Below are positions 9,503-55,960 of a DNA stretch of 64,000 nt, one piece after another. The stretch covers positions 4,240-68,239 of the forward strand of contig CBFCZO010000007.1 in assembly GCA_965602675.1 (NCBI GenBank). Direction: 5' to 3'. The position numbers and the translations under genes are program-made. Positions within the stretch are counted from its first letter, which is position 1, and every line of letters starts with the position of its first letter. Source of the stretch: an uncultured bacterium (GTDB lineage Bacteria; Acidobacteriota; DATKUA01). Under the pieces are notes generated by a model, which saw only the letters and a list, made by a program, of their open reading frames with translations, had not been told where the DNA came from and did not search any database.

Positions 9503-10477
9503 CTAAAGGTCGAGTTGCCTGCCGATCCCTTTCACAAGAGCGCGCCGGTAAACCAGCGGTGCCGTCGCCATGTCGTCGAGGGCAAGGCCGAGGTTGACTG
9601 AGAATATCCGCTCGTCGTCTCTTTCCCTACCGGGAGATTTACCTGCAACCAGGTCGCCGAGATCCAGAATCCTTTCAGGAATGCCCTTGAAATAGCCGAC
9701 CTCGCGGTAGTAGAGCATCTGTTTCACATCGTCGGTGTAGAACTTGTCGGCGCGCTGGAACGGCTCGTGCTTCCAGTAGGAATCGAAATCGACCGGCGAG
9801 GCGAAAGCCCCCGGCTCGAACCACCCGTCTTCGATCACCGGATCCGGATTCTTTAAAATCGGACCGGCGGTGACGACGATATCGCTGCCCCTGACCGCCG
9901 CCTCGGGTGTTTCTACAATCTCGACCTCGATACCCAGTTCTTCACCAACCTTGTCACGGTAACGGCCGGCTGCTTCTTCGACGATATCGAAGGCTTTCAC
10001 CTTTTTAACGTCGAAGACGCATTTCAGCGCCTCGACATTGCTGAAGCCCTGAACTCCACAGCCCAGCACGCCGACAATCTCGGAATCCCGGCGGGCGAGG
10101 TACTTGGCCGCCACCGCAGTCGCCGCGCCGGTTCTCTTGGCCGTCACCCAGGCGCAATCCATCACGCAAACCGGCACGCCCGTCTCCGGATCGTTCAATA
10201 TCATTAGACCGTTGATATACGGCAAGCCGCGTCCGGGATTCTCGGGATACCCGGATACCCATTTCATTCCGGCCGAGTTGAGCGCGGGAATGAAAGCGGG
10301 CATGGCGTGAATAAATGCATCGGGCCTCGTATGAATTCCGGGTTTGGGGGGCATTTCCACCCTCCCTTCCCCCTTTTCCCTGAACATCATCTCGAGAGCA
10401 TCGATGATCTCCGCCATCGGCACGCCGACGCTCTCCACATCTTCTTGTGAAAGATAAAGAATCCTCTCTCCCGACAT
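9503..10477 (-). CDS. Ornithine cyclodeaminase / mu-crystallin family protein
   Basis: Family-typical central NAD-binding region (…SEIVGVLGCGVQGFSNVEALKCVFD…) and 324-aa size. A GAGGGTG ribosome-binding site precedes the ATG. Confidence 0.75.
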   Translation of the reverse strand: MSGERILYLSQEDVESVGVPMAEIIDALEMMFREKGEGRVEMPPKPGIHTRPDAFIHAMPAFIPALNSAGMKWVSGYPENPGRGLPYINGLMILNDPETGVPVCVMDCAWVTAKRTGAATAVAAKYLARRDSEIVGVLGCGVQGFSNVEALKCVFDVKKVKAFDIVEEAAGRYRDKVGEELGIEVEIVETPEAAVRGSDIVVTAGPILKNPDPVIEDGWFEPGAFASPVDFDSYWKHEPFQRADKFYTDDVKQMLYYREVGYFKGIPERILDLGDLVAGKSPGRERDDERIFSVNLGLALDDMATAPLVYRRALVKGIGRQLDL

Positions 10478-10644
10478 CGATTCACCCTCGTTTCAAACAA
10501 TTCGCCTGCAATAAATTCTCATGGTTCCGGGGGATAATGCAAGAACGCTTACTGCCGGCATGCCGTTGATTGCGAGATAGTCCCTCCTGGTGATATTAAT
10601 TGTCCCTCGAATTTGTTATAAACCACGAATAGTGTGATAACTCA

Positions 10645-12804
10645 GTGAAAAACAAGTCCATAGCGGCGCTCCTTTTCCTCTCGGCTGCAATCTCAGCCTT
10701 ATTGCTGGTCTCCGGATGCGGCGGCGGTGAGACTTCACCGCTTGCAGACAAACCCGAGCGAATCAATGTCCTGTTAGTCACAATCGACACCCTGCGCGCC
10801 GACTATCTCGGCTGCAGCGGCAACGAAGACGTCAGCACGCCGCAGATCGACAGGCTGGCTGCCGAAGGTGTGCGCTTCGCTTTCTGTGTCGCACACAATC
10901 CGATTACGCTCCCGAGCCACATCAATATCCTCACCGGAACTGACGCAAGGATACACGGCGTTCACGACAATCACGGCTTTAGGCTCGGTCCCGAAGCGAT
11001 AACGCTGGCGGAAACCTTGAAAACCGGAGGTTATCAGACAGCCGCCTTCATCGGAGCATTCGTCCTCGACAGGCAATTCGGCCTGGAACAGGGTTTCGAC
11101 CTATATGACGACAATCTCGAAACCGGCTCCCAGGTCCTCCTGCTTGGGCAGGAAAGGCGGGCGGAGGCAGTTGTGACCCCGGCAATTGAATGGATAGCAG
11201 GCCACGTGCAAAGACCGTGGTTTGTCTGGGTCCACCTCTATGATCCGCACGCTCCTTATACGCCACCAGCCCCCTTCGACGAGGAATTCGCATCGAATCC
11301 GTATGCCGGCGAAATAAGTTACACGGACGCAGCTCTGGGAAAACTGCTCGACTACCTGAGAAGCATAAACCTGCTCGACAACACCTTGCTGGTTCTCACC
11401 GGCGACCACGGCGAGGGTCTCGGCGATCACGGCGAGTTGACTCACGGAGTTTTCGCCTACAACACGACCATCCAGGTACCTCTGATTATTAGAGCGCCAT
11501 GGCTGGCCCGGCCGGGGATGGAGATCGAGCGCCGCGTCAGGCACATCGACTTGCTGCCGACTATCGTCGAATCCGTCGGTGGACAGATGCCCGGCGCTGC
11601 TCAGGGTGAATCCCTGCTTCCCCTGTTGCGTGGCAACGAAGAGCTGCCTGTTCCTGACAGCTACTTCGAGGCGCTCAGCTCTTCGTTCGCAAGAGGTTGG
11701 GCGCCGCTGCGGGGCATATACAGCGGAGAATGGAAGTACATCGAGTTACCCCTGCCCGAACTCTACGACATGGAAGCCGACCCCGATGAAACCCGGAATC
11801 TTCTGCAAAACCGGGCCGGAACATCTCAGAGATTGCGAACTACACTGCAAGGCATGACGGAAGATACAGAAACCGCTGTGGACGCACACGTGAGGGAGGA
11901 CGAGGAAACTAGGCGCAGGCTGATGGCGCTCGGCTATCTCTCCGGCTCCCCGCAATCCCTCAAAAACGAATATGGCCCCGACGACGACCCCAAGAATCTG
12001 ATCGAGGTTGATGCCCGCATTGAACGCGCGGCTGCGGCCGCCACCTCCGGCGATCTTGACCGATCCGTCGAAATCTTTGAGGAGCTCGTCGCAGAGCAGC
12101 CCGAGATGGCGATCTCGTATCAACTGCTTGCTAACCTGCTGGTGGAGCTGAACAGGGAAGACGAGGCGATTTCTTATCTGGAGCGGGCTGCCGACAAAGG
12201 CCTCGGCGGAGAGGCTGTCCTCAATCAACTCGCCAGAATGCTGTTACACGCAGGCGAGAGCGACCGCGCCGTGCCGATGCTCGAGGAGTTGATTAATCGC
12301 AACCCCGATGATCTTGACTCCGCAAATGCTCTCGCCTCATGGTATGCCAGGGAAGGAAACGCTGCCAAGGCCGAGTATTTATATGTCAGAATAATCGAGC
12401 GGGGTCCTGCCTACACAAATGCCCGTAGCGGATACGGGTGGATGCTGGCCAGGCAGGAGCGCTTCGAGGAAGCGATCGAACAGTTCAATGCAGCCCTGCA
12501 CTATCAGCCCAACAATCTGATGGCGCTGCACGGCTGCGGCGTGGTTTACGAACAGACCGGTATGCTCGAGAAAGCAGAGGAATCGTTCCGTAGAGTTTTA
12601 TCGCTCAACAATATGCATCATTTCGCCCGCCTGCGCCTGGGTCTCGTTCTGGAGCGCCTTGGAAATCTGCAGGAGGCAAGGGTTGAACTGTCGCGTTTCC
12701 TCGAGCTGGCGCAAGGACCTGAATTCGAGGATGCTCGCAGGCAAGCATCCATTGCGCTGGATAGAATTAATCGTGACGGCTCTGAAAACAGACATGATGA
12801 TTAG
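10645..12804 (+). CDS. Sulfatase-domain lipoprotein fused to C-terminal TPR repeats
   Basis: Alkaline-phosphatase-superfamily sulfatase motifs (…TIDTLRADYLGCSGN… with the CxxR active-site context, and LTGDHGEGLGDHGE…H). The C-terminal ~250 aa are TPR-like. The lipobox is LLVSGC. The only available start is a GTG. Confidence 0.8.
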   Translation: MKNKSIAALLFLSAAISALLLVSGCGGGETSPLADKPERINVLLVTIDTLRADYLGCSGNEDVSTPQIDRLAAEGVRFAFCVAHNPITLPSHINILTGTDARIHGVHDNHGFRLGPEAITLAETLKTGGYQTAAFIGAFVLDRQFGLEQGFDLYDDNLETGSQVLLLGQERRAEAVVTPAIEWIAGHVQRPWFVWVHLYDPHAPYTPPAPFDEEFASNPYAGEISYTDAALGKLLDYLRSINLLDNTLLVLTGDHGEGLGDHGELTHGVFAYNTTIQVPLIIRAPWLARPGMEIERRVRHIDLLPTIVESVGGQMPGAAQGESLLPLLRGNEELPVPDSYFEALSSSFARGWAPLRGIYSGEWKYIELPLPELYDMEADPDETRNLLQNRAGTSQRLRTTLQGMTEDTETAVDAHVREDEETRRRLMALGYLSGSPQSLKNEYGPDDDPKNLIEVDARIERAAAAATSGDLDRSVEIFEELVAEQPEMAISYQLLANLLVELNREDEAISYLERAADKGLGGEAVLNQLARMLLHAGESDRAVPMLEELINRNPDDLDSANALASWYAREGNAAKAEYLYVRIIERGPAYTNARSGYGWMLARQERFEEAIEQFNAALHYQPNNLMALHGCGVVYEQTGMLEKAEESFRRVLSLNNMHHFARLRLGLVLERLGNLQEARVELSRFLELAQGPEFEDARRQASIALDRINRDGSENRHDD

Positions 12805-52400: not shown

Positions 52401-52694
52401 GTGGCCGATTACTAAATCTACAGGTTGCGAGCTTAGAGTGATGCTGCCGGGCGCAGAGTGGCTGATTATCAGGCTCGAGCCGCCGCTGTGCCTGACTGCC
52501 GAGTCAACCATGACAGCATTTCCGCCGGGAACATCCGTTTCGAGTTCCCAACCGGCAGGCGATCCTTCCCCGTCGCGCTCTTCGAAACCGGGATTCGTCA
52601 GCGGGATATCTTCGTCGGCAAGCGCCGATAGTCCGACGAAAAGCGGCAAGATCAGAGCGGTTAGCAGAATTCTATAAGACTTCTTCTCAGGCAT
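49488..52694 (-). CDS. Large secreted multidomain protein: CBM-like N-terminal domain, Ntn-hydrolase (C45-like) domain, degenerate M1-peptidase-like C-terminal domain
   Basis: Signal peptide. An N-terminal galactose-binding-like module (…GWVKTEDAF…GKAWFDDVKLEKI) is followed by a …HHKCSAITATG…YINDAGIVIGETT… segment resembling C45 acyltransferase/hydrolases. The C-terminal …KGTYVLHQLRLLLGNDLFLKMM… segment resembles the M1 post-catalytic domain but has no HEXXH. The start at 52694 sits behind GGAGGAG. Confidence 0.55.
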   Translation of the reverse strand: MPEKKSYRILLTALILPLFVGLSALADEDIPLTNPGFEERDGEGSPAGWELETDVPGGNAVMVDSAVRHSGGSSLIISHSAPGSITLSSQPVDLVIGHLYRLSGWVKTEDAFSDPTSHFPTAVPACLTMLSFPFTNHSPAVGATSGWREIEVLFIATKKKDRVKVNFGFNGTATGKAWFDDVKLEKIDNISRYIPLETVSWFGPAYRYDDRGWIFVHIEGEPYDRGYQYGYLVSDEIVEYINKLAIRQNRANPGDGWNTIRFMTQAFMLNRYDEEYQVEMKGIADGASYAGARFDGRPLDVVDIAGINSIIDFGQMRGALQRTANATSGINFLKHEDELLISDEHHKCSAITATGSATEDGRFVFGQIFMWNGYTGVHWDVICDVVPSKGHRIVYHTFPGGLHSGSDFYINDAGIVIGETTVSQTPYNDEGTPQSNRIRKAMQYGDSIDDVVEILTDRNNGQYTNEWPFADAKNDEVGIFLLGTYKWRLWRSSEGDFPAGLTDYYWCNNNNKDLEVRKEYIVNADNAPYDLMFRPWNRDLAFNEFYHRKKGEIDSIAVSELWASSPINRAHACDGKITTGDMADQLVFLAHYGKLTLRHKFVGDRFVADLPGAEPHLSLGYSTPSPIFVTDKLHALGGKARMPAPEPIYLTRLDVSAAADIYRIDKRSLWRNSIYPATQAESWLISGSPAYWRLLDGMPGNPGEAAGRLSDELAGLNNAFLYTVSREEDLVPLETEERFDAYRFYQVPRIKGTYVLHQLRLLLGNDLFLKMMDEVYSVFTDKEISTGQFISAAEQISGKPLRGFIEQWIGRKGLPAPEVKVTAERAGGESWQVNFEVTQRGEPYHLFGTVDVFCGVTVHRMPMEISGAVSSFMVSVPAKPTKVVFNSGNDFPVERDNFYIFANFVDDFHHTKIVYGTARQIEANHSLALQWQETLADAYSEILPPLRKDCEITRDELASHDLIVVGAPHDNTLITEIAGKLDELEVGRNWFRWRGELFARPDDGLVIVLPNPWNRDKVLYLMLSNSTMQLYHMTRRYERGVPSWAVYKGEEIVRRGYHPVERYVFELN

Positions 52695-52961
52695 TATTCT
52701 CCTCCCCTGATGCGGCATGTGGAAAAACAACCTCAGTAACCCGAAACCTATTCTAGCCGCTTTCTTACCTAAGCGTAAAGAAGATGAAATTATAATGGAA
52801 ACGCCATTATTTCATTTTATGGAGGCGCTTTATTTACCTGGGAACGCCGATCAAGTCTTCCATAACCGAGAAAAATATTGCGTCGAAGTTTTTTTTATGC
52901 GATACATGAATCCTAACCAACATATACACTCTCGGGCAGAGTGCGTTACTAGGAGGGGAAA

Positions 52962-53159
52962 ATGAAGGTATTGGAGTGGCTTGCTTTGATCATCGTATTT
53001 ATCGGGGCAATCAACTGGGGGCTCGTCGGGCTGTTTGATTTCAACCTCGTAACATACCTGTTTGCCTCAATGGAATGGTTAGTGAAGACAATCTACGTCA
53101 TCGTGGGGCTTGCCGGTATTGTACTCCTCATCTGCAAGTTTGCTACTGCGAAGGAATAA
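52962..53159 (+). CDS. DUF378 small membrane protein
   Basis: INWGLVGLF motif, two transmembrane helices, 65 aa. An AGGAGGGG ribosome-binding site precedes the ATG. The terminator at 53183-53213 is CCTCCCC…GGGGAGG followed by T6. Confidence 0.75.
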   Translation: MKVLEWLALIIVFIGAINWGLVGLFDFNLVTYLFASMEWLVKTIYVIVGLAGIVLLICKFATAKE

Positions 53160-53301
53160 CGCCCGTGATTATTTCACCAAACCTCCCCGGGGGCCCACTG
53201 GGGAGGGTTTTTTGTTATCTTTAAACAAGAACCGTTCTCTTTCTCTATCAAAAATTTGTTTGATTAAGGTGCCCTGGGTGTGCTACAAGGCAATAACTCG
53301 T

Positions 53302-54001
53302 AACTGTCCCTATTTAAATAGAAAATGCCACGCAGACCAAGAATAGTGATACAAGGCGTTGCCCACCTCTTGACGCAGAGGGGCAACAACAGTCAGGACG
53401 TCTTCCTAGCCGATAAGGACAAGATTGCCTACCTGGAAAAGCTCACAAAAAAGGCGGAGAAATACTCGCTGGAGATCCTGGGGTACTGCCTGATGAGCAA
53501 CAACGTCCACCTGATCGGCACACCCCGGAAACCGGAATCACTGGCGAAGGCCTTCGGACGCACGAATCTCTCTTACACCCAATACTTCAACGAAAAGTAC
53601 AGTTTCAGCGGGCACCTCTGGCAGAATCGTTACTATTCCTGCCCGCTCGACGAGGAACACTTCTGGCGAGCGCTCTGCTACATCGAGAGAATTCCCGTGA
53701 GGGCCGGCCTCGTCGAGAACGCCTGGTCATACAGCTGGTCCAGCGCGGCTGCGCATATCGGCAATGACTCGCTCGATAAACTGATCGATCTGCGTAAATG
53801 GGAATCCATGGCAGCCGGCATCGGCTGGGAATCCCAGCTCAAACGCCCCGATGACAAGAAGACAATCTCGAGGATAAACCGCAGTCTGAAATCCGGCCGC
53901 CCCCTGGGCAATGACGATTTCATCGACGCTCTGGAGCTGAAAACAAGCCGCCGCCTCCGCCCGCTGCCCGTCGGCCGCCCGCCCAATAAATAGGGACAGT
54001 T
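53302..54001 (+). mobile_element. REP-associated / IS200-like tyrosine transposase unit bounded by 14-bp perfect inverted repeats
   Basis: AACTGTCCCTATTT at 53302-53315 and its reverse complement AAATAGGGACAGTT at 53988-54001 bracket the transposase ORF. A third partial copy, TAACTGTCCTTA, lies at 54055-54066. Confidence 0.65.
53325..53993 (+). CDS. IS200/IS605-family Y1 (HUH) transposase, RAYT-like
   Basis: …HLLTQRGNN… and the HuH-type motif …NNVHLIG…, plus a Tyr-containing C-terminal region (SYTQYFNEKY). Confidence 0.7.
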   Translation: MPRRPRIVIQGVAHLLTQRGNNSQDVFLADKDKIAYLEKLTKKAEKYSLEILGYCLMSNNVHLIGTPRKPESLAKAFGRTNLSYTQYFNEKYSFSGHLWQNRYYSCPLDEEHFWRALCYIERIPVRAGLVENAWSYSWSSAAAHIGNDSLDKLIDLRKWESMAAGIGWESQLKRPDDKKTISRINRSLKSGRPLGNDDFIDALELKTSRRLRPLPVGRPPNK

Positions 54002-54063
54002 CCTTGTTAAGCTCACGCAATTATCAGCCTTCCGCAACTCACAGGATAATATGATAACTGTCC

Positions 54064-54576
54064 TTATCTGAGCACAAACTCCCACGCACAATGGTATTCC
54101 GGCGGGTGAGGATCGGGCGGGCACGTGAGACAGCGCGTCCGGAAGCGCGGATCGATTGTCGATGCAAAGGTAGTGTACTCGACTATGCCCACCTCCTTGC
54201 ACGGAAACGGCTCCAGGCCCTTGCGCTCACGGGCTGACTGCACCCGGCAATTGTTCATCGTCAGAATCACGGTTTTGTCGTCGACGACCTCTATTGTCTG
54301 TACGTTGATGAATGAATAAAGGCGACGGTCGAGAGCCTTAGCAAGAGCGTCAACTCCACCGCCTTCCGGTATCTCGTGACGCTTCATGATTCTCCCGGCT
54401 TCAATCGGCGAAAACCGCCCCCACGCTTCCTTGTCGAGATCGATGGCATCCCTTATTCCAAAGCGGCCTTCAACAGCCTGAAACCAAAGGCCGTCGTGCG
54501 CGAGCCACAGCTTCGCGGCATCGGCAAGCATGTCGATGATTAGTTCCTTATCATATTTATCTATATCCCTGGCCAT
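54064..54576 (-). CDS. Hypothetical protein
   Basis: 170 aa counted from the internal ATG at 54576. No family was recognised. Confidence 0.5.
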   Translation of the reverse strand: MARDIDKYDKELIIDMLADAAKLWLAHDGLWFQAVEGRFGIRDAIDLDKEAWGRFSPIEAGRIMKRHEIPEGGGVDALAKALDRRLYSFINVQTIEVVDDKTVILTMNNCRVQSARERKGLEPFPCKEVGIVEYTTFASTIDPRFRTRCLTCPPDPHPPEYHCAWEFVLR

Positions 54577-54730
54577 GAATCCCCCCGTTAAAAAGGCGTG
54601 TTGGTTCTTCTCCCTGCCAATATTAGCGGAACCGGGTAGGGATATGAAGTGCGATCCGACTCGACGTTGACAGCAATGCATGTTTCTGCGTACTTTGCAC
54701 TCAATCCAACATCAACAGTGAGGGGGCACG

Positions 54731-55960
54731 ATGGCGCGATCCTACGAATATCTCATAATCGGAGCAGGCCTGGCAGGGCACAATGCCGCTGTTGAAATTC
54801 GGGAGCGGGATAGCGGCTCAACCCTGGCGATAGTCGGCGCCGAACCCCACCGTCCTTATAACCGCCCCCCCCTCAGCAAGGCCCTACTAACCGGACAAGC
54901 GCCGGAGGACAGCGTTTATATCGAAAAGAGCGAATTCTATCAGAGCAAGGGCATCGAGCTGATTCCCGGCACCACAGCATCTGCTCTCGACGCAGCAATA
55001 AAGACGGTTTTTCTTTCAGACGGCCGGGAACTGGAATATGGCAAATTGCTGGTTGCGACGGGCGGTAACGCCCGGCAACTAAATATTCCGGGGTGGGAAC
55101 TAACAGGCGTATTCACTCTTCGGAACCTGGAAGACTCACTGGCGATCAAAGCAGCAGCGGTGAATGCGGAGGGCGTCGTGGTAATCGGGGGAGGCTTTGT
55201 GGGAGCGGAGACCGCGTCCTCATTAACGGAGAGCGGCCGCAGAGTCAGCATGATCTTTCCGGAACAAGCTGTTCTTGGGAGGCTGTTGCCCCAGGATTTC
55301 GGCCTGTTCCTCAATGAAGTCTATCGAGATCGAGGTGTCGAAATTCTCGCCGCCGATTCAGTTGTTGCTTTCGAGGGAGACGATAGGGTGAAACGCGTGA
55401 GAACCGAAAGCGGGAAAGTCGTCGACTGCGATCTGGTGGTGGTCGGAGCCGGAATAGAGTTACAAACCGCCTTCACACGAGATGCGCTGGCTACCGATCG
55501 ACGCGGCGCCGTGATAACCGACGACCACCTGCGCAGCAGCGCAGAGAGTGTCTGGGCTGCCGGCGATATCGCCTCATACTACGATAGGCTATACCAGCGG
55601 CAAATGCGATTCGAGCACTGGAGCACTGCGATGAATCAGGGCAAGAACGCCGGCGCAGCGATGGCGGGCGATCCGCAGCCCTTCACCTCACCGGCCTACT
55701 TCTTCTCCGTCCTCTTCGGGATGTTTATCCAAATCGGCGGAAATTTCGAGCCGGAAGATATCTCAAGGCGAGGAAATCCGGATGAAAAAACTGTGGGCTA
55801 TTACTCTTTCCACGAGGGCGTAATCGAGGGCTACACCGTTCTGGGAAGACCCCAAGAGGAGGAAAAGGTTATTCAACGGTTGATCCTGGACAGGCGAAGA
55901 AAAGAGGAATTGGCTGAAGCGCTGGCCGATGAAAACCGTGATCTCAGTACTCTGATTTGA
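54731..55960 (+). CDS. FAD/NAD(P)-binding pyridine nucleotide-disulfide oxidoreductase (ferredoxin-reductase / AIF-like)
   Basis: N-terminal YEYLIIGAGLAGHNAA and a second Rossmann fold (VVIGGGFVGAE). Confidence 0.8.
   Translation: MARSYEYLIIGAGLAGHNAAVEIRERDSGSTLAIVGAEPHRPYNRPPLSKALLTGQAPEDSVYIEKSEFYQSKGIELIPGTTASALDAAIKTVFLSDGRELEYGKLLVATGGNARQLNIPGWELTGVFTLRNLEDSLAIKAAAVNAEGVVVIGGGFVGAETASSLTESGRRVSMIFPEQAVLGRLLPQDFGLFLNEVYRDRGVEILAADSVVAFEGDDRVKRVRTESGKVVDCDLVVVGAGIELQTAFTRDALATDRRGAVITDDHLRSSAESVWAAGDIASYYDRLYQRQMRFEHWSTAMNQGKNAGAAMAGDPQPFTSPAYFFSVLFGMFIQIGGNFEPEDISRRGNPDEKTVGYYSFHEGVIEGYTVLGRPQEEEKVIQRLILDRRRKEELAEALADENRDLSTLI

Follow-up and report, generated by a model that had tools for sequence, protein, structure and literature searches.

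A TIRtron-type locus of an uncultured acidobacterium, fixed in its gene neighbourhood and eroded at its active site, may encode a co-opted former transposase

A stretch of 64,000 nucleotides from an uncultured Acidobacteriota bacterium (GCA_965602675.1, contig CBFCZO010000007.1, positions 4,240 to 68,239; hereafter the window) contains a gene coding for a 222-residue protein with a Y1 transposase domain, which is closely bracketed by inverted repeats. This arrangement raises the question of which kind of element the locus is, and of whether its protein still acts as a transposase. An earlier note on this DNA, made from the sequence alone, had read it as a REP/RAYT system (repetitive extragenic palindromes, REPs, with their associated tyrosine transposase) rather than as an insertion sequence (IS) of the IS200 type. 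The answer proposed here is that the locus is probably a fixed and eroded TIRtron, i.e. a RAYT-like gene (TIRYT) between terminal inverted repeats (TIRs), the protein of which would no longer be a transposase and would have been co-opted by the host. Its classification as a fixed unit of the TIRtron type (TIRYT; subclass 2.1), and neither as a classical GTAG-REP/RAYT system nor as IS200, is the part of this answer that we hold with high confidence.

The window protein is recognised by Pfam as Y1_Tnp (“Transposase IS200 like”), with 39 bits. In the comparison of RAYT and IS200 hidden Markov models that the earlier note had proposed, the NCBIfam RAYT equivalog NF047646 (REP_Tyr_transpos) matches with 56.3 bits, which is below its cut-off of 80, while the IS200 model NF033573 (transpos_IS200) gives no match at E ≤0.01. 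All 36 aligned family members match REP_Tyr_transpos, each of them better than transpos_IS200, which is matched by 16 of the 36, and weakly (best E 1.3e-4). A structural model predicted by AlphaFold (AF2) from 36 relatives (pLDDT 90, pTM 0.87) has E. coli TnpAREP (4ER8) as its best match among solved structures (E 7.5e-9, TM 0.70 on the target), with the transposases of IS608, ISDra2 and IS200 found at E 1.5e-5 or worse. The description of the protein as RAYT-like and not IS200 is therefore upheld. A phmmer search of the PDB sequences with the single window protein gave no match, and an exact-protein look-up returned no identical record. At the sequence level, BLASTP aligns the protein over residues 1-222 with the TIRYT aba 2776 of Koribacter versatilis (43% identity, E 2e-63; the sequence of aba 2776 was taken from the supplementary alignment in Additional file 5 of PMC3733652). 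At least 3,850 database clusters match (~225-240 residues, 50-57% identity, 99-100% query coverage), and the named relatives among them are mostly from Planctomycetota. Residues S139, S140, G191-R192-P193 and G217-R218-P219, which belong to the Ser motif and to the C-terminal extension, are invariant in the family and kept in the window protein. The profile of the C-terminal tail, sGRPLGsd.Fl.klE..lGrrLrPlpvGRPkk (window 53868-53990, residues 182-222), also shows a weak resemblance to the C-terminal helix-turn-helix helices of MBF1/EDF1, of which eukaryotic and archaeal representatives match it at E 0.013-0.03 in a search of PDB sequences; this likeness could be due to chance or to a common DNA/RNA-binding helix.

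The class to which the gene is assigned is itself already described. TIRYT genes were reported by Di Nocera, De Gregorio & Rocco (2013, BMC Genomics 14:522; PMC3733652) as RAYT-like genes residing in TIRtrons, with TIRs unrelated to the GTAG REPs. Many of these TIRs contain GGGGWSAS; in some cases the TIR runs over the 3' end of the gene, and in some it belongs to a moderately abundant, often dimeric family. Both the HUH motif and the catalytic Tyr are stated to be conserved in all TIRYTs. In the classification of Quentin et al. (2018, BMC Genomics 19:475; PMC6006769), TIRYTs form the TnpA(Y1) subclass 2.1, characterised by a Y---NP signature and a C-terminal extension, which corresponds to RAYT group 1 of Bertels et al. 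2017 (PMC5581495) and beside the genes of which REP-like structures were not found. Our assignment to subclass 2.1 relies on their placement of 20 of 26 TIRYTs there. In the literature searched, the term TIRYT was met only in PMC3733652 and PMC6006769.

The repeats around the window gene agree with what had been noted from the sequence. AACTGTCCCTATTT (53302-53315, forward strand) and its exact reverse complement AAATAGGGACAGTT (53988-54001) form 14-bp perfect inverted repeats around the 222-codon open reading frame (ORF), the right one including its TAG stop codon, and a third sequence, TAACTGTCCTTA, is present at 54055-54066. Taken as a 14-mer (AACTGTCCTTATCT, 54056-54069), the latter is a weaker, direct copy with two mismatches. 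The inverted repeat can be extended to 23 nt with 87% complementarity, giving the copies referred to as c1 and c2 (Table 1), and the third copy is referred to as c3. When the two 260-nt flanks are compared, their longest exact inverted match has 15 nt, as against a maximum of 10 in 50 shuffles of the flanks, so that the inverted repeat is not a product of chance, and in dozens of unrelated genomes homologous genes lie between copies of this motif. On its own c3 is marginal, with ~2.7 matches at ≤3 mismatches expected per 64 kb, but it is supported by its orthologous copy in the related locus L007, which overlaps the stop codon of the convergent DUF6125 gene in the same manner. No further copies at ≤3 mismatches were found in the window beyond these local ones, and none outside the gene flanks in the 20-kb orthologous loci. 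The transposase gene is single-copy within the window, and an Rfam scan of positions 52600-54800 gave no match.

The family to which these repeats belong was characterised with 80 relatives' loci fetched from GTDB species genomes, out of at least 528 existing, from Planctomycetota, Hydrogenedentota, Acidobacteriota, Gemmatimonadota, Zixibacteria and others. Of the 59 loci having both flanks, about 45 show the gene between inverted repeats of at least 12 nt, all of a single motif. Its consensus, aaAnTaGGGACAGYCACCTATTT, is a 22-nt near-palindrome with arms AAATAGG and CCTATTT enclosing GACAGTCA, and a 17-nt core hardly varies at either end of the unit, in spite of protein identities of just ~50%. 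The GTAG foot of classical REPs is absent from this consensus as well as from the window copies, the repeats being of the GGGACAGYCACCTATTT type. A scan of 1.07 Mb with the 16-nt core (≤3 mismatches) retrieved 128 copies at no more than 400 bp from the genes. Their positions are stereotyped, with one copy on the plus strand ~55-60 nt upstream of the ATG and one on the minus strand across the stop codon. Distal copies number 29, versus 6 in a reversed-sequence control, and some of them form inverted doublets 32-43 nt apart. Four distal copies from different genomes (L117:1892, L139:2928, L150:1692 and L174:2681) have in common a TAGGGACAGTCACGAATGGC variant whose inner arm is not CCTATTT, possibly one end of another, related family of elements.

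In 46 of 54 cases TTGACA (≤1 mismatch) comes after the left TIR, nearly always at a distance of 0-5 nt from its end; 40 of the 54 have a TAnnnT box, and the −10 box ends 6-9 nt ahead of the ATG in 47, a distance from which a leaderless mRNA is predicted. The canonical unit would accordingly be read, from sequence, as a TIR (core GGGACAGYCACCTATTT) followed by a TTGACA/TAnnnT promoter, a probably leaderless ORF and a right TIR containing the TAG or TGA stop codon, with examples among L107-L185 at L179:9940-10700 and in L119, L145 and L169. The position of the TIR directly against the −35 box suggests that the encoded protein may regulate its own expression.

In other genomes this unit behaves as a mobile one. 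Two copies in one Holophagales UBA2201 genome (L176 and L179, positions 9930-10690 of each) have 99.4% nucleotide identity across the gene, and two further within-genome pairs are 97% (L155/L158) and 93% (L157/L165) identical. In all three pairs the flanks are unrelated and identity stops at the TIRs, a pattern which indicates that the whole TIR-gene-TIR unit has recently moved in these genomes. Decayed and rearranged members are also seen: a Zixibacteria metagenome-assembled genome (MAG) has, at L183:3390-3707, an in-frame TGA after WQNRFFS with same-frame homology continuing beyond it. In another locus, at L175:1534-1671, a duplicated N-terminal fragment (residues 1-46) lies upstream of the full gene.

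The window copy, on the other hand, is fixed. The gene order PLB-like (1068 residues) / DUF378 / (SnoaL) / Y1 / DUF6125 (convergent) / Pyr_redox_2 is found in L001-L005 and in the Acidobacteriota-labelled MAG L106, which carry a 78% orthologue, and in L007, which carries a 66% orthologue, as well as in the same-species contigs L006 and L186. The L106 orthologue is the best match among the GTDB representatives, which do not include the source genome. The amino-acid identities of the Y1 protein in the two comparisons, 78% and 65%, are similar to those of Pyr_redox_2 (76% and 64%), and its approximate dN/dS ratios of 0.10-0.13 fall within the range of 0.09-0.14 seen in most comparisons of neighbour genes (0.07-0.24 overall). 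The window copy is vertically inherited in at least three species, single-copy in the window and under purifying selection.

What has been conserved under this selection is not the complete active site. At 60 positions that are at least 95% conserved among the 117 other members aligned, the window protein keeps 55 residues and differs by H15L, F28L, H60N, R94F and N123I. The other members have H60 and H62 in 117/117 and N123 in 116/117. In a profile alignment (hhalign), N60, H62, Y119 and I123 of the window protein correspond to H59, H61, Y115 and N119 of TnpAREP, and H59, H61 and N119 are the metal ligands in its crystal structure (PMC3479197). Since N60 and I123 occupy the positions of ligands H59 and N119, two of the three predicted metal ligands are gone. 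In the sister lineage (L001, L106), I123 is found in common with the window protein but H62D replaces H60N, whereas the outgroup L007 has both HVH and the Asn intact. Separate losses in the HUH motif following a shared N123I would be expected once metal binding had become dispensable. The earlier note had passed over the broken HUH motif (NVH) and the conserved synteny. A QVH variant, mlo 6832, is present in the published TIRYT alignment (PMC3733652, Additional file 5) although the text describes the HUH as conserved in all, and HUH-degenerate TIRYTs may be commoner than has been recognised.

The repeats of the window copy are likewise altered. By hand count c1 matches the family TIR consensus at 17 of 22 positions; its AAATAGG end points toward the gene, so that it is flipped with respect to a canonical left TIR and resembles the inner doublet copy in L113. 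It lies just 9 nt upstream of the ATG, with the canonical left TIR, the TTGACA promoter and the spacer missing, and together with the AAATAG following it forms a 12-bp palindrome, CTATTTAAATAG (53310-53321), 3 nt ahead of the ATG. Copy c2, also counted by hand, has 17 of 22 positions in agreement with the consensus when read as given and 13 of 22 when read in the opposite orientation, and is therefore flipped with respect to a canonical right TIR; it likewise resembles an inner doublet copy of L113. Together with c3 it forms an inverted doublet with 54 nt separating the arms, a REPIN-like arrangement which occurs intact in L113. As single-stranded DNA the c2-c3 doublet folds no better than shuffled sequence (z = −0.2), and a stable REPIN hairpin or a terminator is not claimed for it. 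A reading of CTGT...ACAG as a LexA box was dropped, as the sequence does not form a CTGT-N8-ACAG palindrome and the family TIR accounts for it. In L007, where the HUH, Tyr and Asn of the active site are intact, five local repeat copies are found at 9850-10000 and 10800-10870, with a ~50-nt unit common to the upstream and downstream groups. In all five, the GGG that is invariant elsewhere has undergone a G-to-T change (AAATAGTGACAG). This indicates concerted evolution, by which the repeats are tied to the local protein, and suggests that repeats were amplified or homogenised locally in that lineage.

The coordinates of the locus are collected in Table 1. Both convergent genes, Y1 and DUF6125, end within repeat copies, as they do in L007, and the DUF6125 stop codon lies inside a repeat copy also in L001. 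The program-called DUF6125 ORF extends over 54064-54681 (minus strand, 205 residues), while the orthologues have 170 residues and start with MARDIDKYDKE; the true start is probably at 54576. As for the surroundings of the gene, a low-GC patch and strong terminators had been noted. The patch exists (0.42-0.50, ~52550-53450) and carries DUF378 and intergenic DNA, but the body of the transposase gene is at 0.50-0.58; of the terminators, just one strong terminator-like hairpin is present, at 53182-53206, 3' of DUF378. As DUF378 is syntenic in relatives, the low-GC patch is no sign of recent import. Recent horizontal import was accordingly rejected, the patch being centred on this syntenic gene and the transposase gene diverging together with its neighbours.

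Table 1. Features of the TIRtron-type locus and its adjacent genes, in window coordinates.
Feature	Position	Strand	Remarks
Left repeat copy c1	53294..53316	-	Exact core 53302-53315; minus-strand reading AAATAGGGACAGTTACGAGTTA
TIRYT-type Y1 (HUH-fold) transposase-like gene, 222 aa	53325..53993	+	Core domain and conserved C-terminal extension, end SGRPLG..F...LE....RRLRPLPVGRP
Degenerate HUH motif, codons 60-62 (Asn-Val-His)	53502..53510	+	His60 in 117/117 other family members
Tyr motif YIERI, codons 119-123	53679..53693	+	Catalytic Tyr119 kept; Y+4 Asn replaced by Ile123
Right repeat copy c2, AAATAGGGACAGTTCCTTGTTA	53987..54009	+	Exact core 53988-54001; holds TAG stop 53991-53993
Third degenerate copy c3, TAACTGTCCTTATCT	54055..54069	+	Canonical right-end orientation; overlaps DUF6125 stop 54064-54066
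Convergent neighbour DUF6125, 170 aa as in orthologues	54064..54576	-	In conserved synteny; stop codon within c3
Upstream neighbour DUF378	52962..53159	+	In conserved synteny, outside the element

The comparison with known systems places the locus closest to the TIRtrons. It has in common with them a RAYT-like Y1 protein, the long C-terminal extension of which closes with GRPLG...F...LE....L.P.K.GRP, and bracketing inverted repeats which are unrelated to GTAG REPs, may occur as dimers and of which the 3' one lies over the end of the ORF. Where GGGGWSAS is published, the window has AGGGACAG, in agreement at 7 of 8 positions, and the relatives have GGGGACAG (several loci) or AGGGACAG, the family consensus being aGGGACAG. 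Unlike the described TIRYTs, the window protein has NVH in place of HUH and Ile in place of the Y+4 Asn, with only Tyr119 retained; its gene-proximal repeats are flipped and half-decayed, the family promoter is absent and the gene is fixed in synteny. We therefore treat the window gene as a degenerate TIRtron member by descent, and not as a functional transposase. Features in common with subclass 2.1 are the class 2 architecture, a Y---NP signature if the family as a whole is considered, the Ser motif (WSS) after the Tyr helix, the conserved C-terminal domain and a wide, patchy taxonomy. The window sequence itself differs, reading Y119-I-E-R-I123-P124 where the family has N in 116/117, and most of the loci examined here have a conserved 22-nt near-palindromic TIR, whereas in PMC6006769 REP-like sequences were not found beside the genes of this subclass.

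The E. coli TnpAREP and its REPtron (Ton-Hoang 2012; Messing 2012, 4ER8, PMC3479197) provide the best structural match, with homologous HUH, Tyr and Y+4 Asn positions and a gene that is also flanked by inverted repeats. The sequence identity is however only ~16-18%, and the window protein has an extra C-terminal domain of ~90 residues. There is neither a GTAG-tagged REP nor a high-copy REP population in the sequence covered (the 64 kb and the 20-kb orthologous loci), and whole TIR units are duplicated in other genomes, something that REPtrons are not believed to do. The TnpA proteins of the IS200/IS605 group (IS608, ISDra2, IS200) have the HUH/Y1 fold and the Pfam domain Y1_Tnp in common with the window protein, but the family has Y---N instead of Y---Q, inverted terminal repeats instead of same-strand subterminal hairpins, a longer protein and no tnpB partner, and the window copy is single and syntenic.

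These similarities suggest alternatives that have to be weighed against a fixed and eroded TIRtron. A classical REP/RAYT system would consist of a single-copy RAYT whose enzyme spreads the flanking REPs or REPINs to many places of the genome. The protein, being nearer to the RAYT model and structure than to IS200, would suit it, as would the inverted c2/c3 doublet, the solo and doublet TIRs that other members have away from the gene (29 vs 6 in the control) and the moderately abundant TIR families known from some species (PMC3733652). We nevertheless consider it quite improbable, given that the score of 56 bits is below the equivalog cut-off of 80, that the repeats have no GTAG-tagged hairpin and are degenerate, that two metal ligands are lost, and that no extra copy occurs at ≤3 mismatches either in the 64 kb or outside the gene flanks of the 20-kb orthologous loci. 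The motif is too short for a scan of whole databases, a 15-mer giving 98 single chance matches in viral contigs alone. What stands of the original REP/RAYT reading is thus the RAYT-like protein, the reality of the inverted repeats and the REPIN-like doublet, and not the classical system. Least probable of all is a recently inserted and currently mobile IS of the IS200/IS605 type. The Y1_Tnp domain and the recent duplication of related units in other genomes are compatible with it, but it is contradicted by the conserved synteny and by a divergence equal to that of the neighbours across three species, and goes against the missing IS200 match at E ≤0.01, the family signature Y---NP rather than Y---Q (PMC6006769), the inverted terminal repeats found in place of same-strand subterminal hairpins, and the single copy in the window.

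The two other alternatives concern the state of the protein. It could still act as a nuclease or transposase, its metal being bound at a non-canonical site (Asn-Val-His and water), and could maintain or rearrange the local repeats and be selected for doing so. Tyr119 and 55 of the 60 invariant positions are kept at a dN/dS of ~0.1, the side chains of Asn and Asp are able to bind metals, the QVH variant mlo 6832 stands in the published TIRYT alignment, and the flipped inner copies could stem from local cleavage and rejoining. Ile123, however, is unable to bind a metal, which leaves two protein ligands at most; after N123I, a different His of the HUH was lost in each of the two sister lineages (H60N, H62D), as expected for an unneeded site; and the repeats have decayed to 17 of 22 matches, with no recent copying seen. 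Continued activity of this kind is therefore unlikely in our view, although less so than the classical REP/RAYT system. If instead the gene were a functionless pseudogene in decay, intact only by chance, the erosion of active-site residues, repeats and promoter would be accounted for, and clear pseudogenes do exist in the family (e.g. the in-frame stop of L183). But the ORF is full-length in three lineages separated by dS >1.3, where neutral sequence would have gained stops or frameshifts, and its dN/dS of 0.10-0.13 is as in the adjacent genes. These observations contradict a pseudogene, which we regard as very improbable.

The explanation that we favour, a fixed and eroded TIRtron co-opted by its host, can be set out as follows. 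By analogy with TnpAREP and IS608 TnpA, the RAYT-like TIRYT enzyme would bind the TIR, and would cut and rejoin DNA using the catalytic Tyr and a metal held by the HUH and the Y+4 Asn. The window copy would derive from an ancient insertion which was then fixed and inherited vertically in one gene neighbourhood, with its repeats half-decaying, its inner copies flipped as in REPIN-like doublets and its canonical promoter being lost. Its protein, which has lost conserved polar residues (H60N, N123I, H15L and R94F), would no longer work as a transposase. The host would have kept it for a role that depends on the fold, on the Tyr and on the surface that binds DNA, and for which canonical metal-dependent cleavage is not required, the likeliest such role being sequence-specific DNA binding at the remaining repeat copies. 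Taken alone, the loss of transposase activity combined with co-option appears to us to be evenly balanced. A full domestication is put forward more tentatively and is rather doubtful. In this reading, the TIRYT would have lost its metal-binding residues stepwise after fixation in an Acidobacteriota-like lineage, R94 first, N123 and H15 afterwards, and finally H60 in one branch and H62 in the other, with purifying selection throughout, and would have been exapted as a non-catalytic, sequence-specific DNA-binding protein; the TIR half-sites that it would recognise are the remaining ones, beside the start codon of its gene and where the two convergent genes end.

Several points weigh against this explanation. 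The view is limited to 64 kb of the source genome, and other gene copies or dispersed repeats may exist elsewhere in it. Metals can also be coordinated by Asn and Asp, and among other HUH enzymes there are active HUQ-type variants, for which reason the loss of activity is something that we infer. No sigma-70-like promoter was identified by a search upstream of the window gene, the expression of which is only predicted. The dS values of 1.3-2.8 are saturated and make the dN/dS ratios approximate, yet these are far below 1. An empty site that would prove the original insertion was sought in metagenomes via the relatives of DUF6125 and none was recovered, the search giving the same-species L186, the known syntenic L187, and matches of 53-67% identity in unrelated contexts. 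Finally, we know of no host function for any TIRYT.

For genome annotation, the label of “IS200-like transposase” is wrong for these genes. Few Y1 HUH proteins are as widespread as the TIRYTs (RAYT group 1, subclass 2.1); no biochemical study of a TIRYT was found in the literature search. If the reading as a full domestication is true, the locus would be a rare and datable bacterial case of an HUH transposase turned host factor. It stands in a comparative series which includes mobile units, of which one genome has copies that are 99% identical, an intact and fixed orthologue (L007) and two sister lineages with different HUH losses, all under purifying selection. The survey of the family in addition provides a concrete DNA partner, the nearly invariant 17-nt TIR core, as well as a compact unit in which the TIR abuts the promoter and contains the stop codon. 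Together, the series and this anatomy bear on the question of whether TIRYTs are transposases, domesticated genes, or both.

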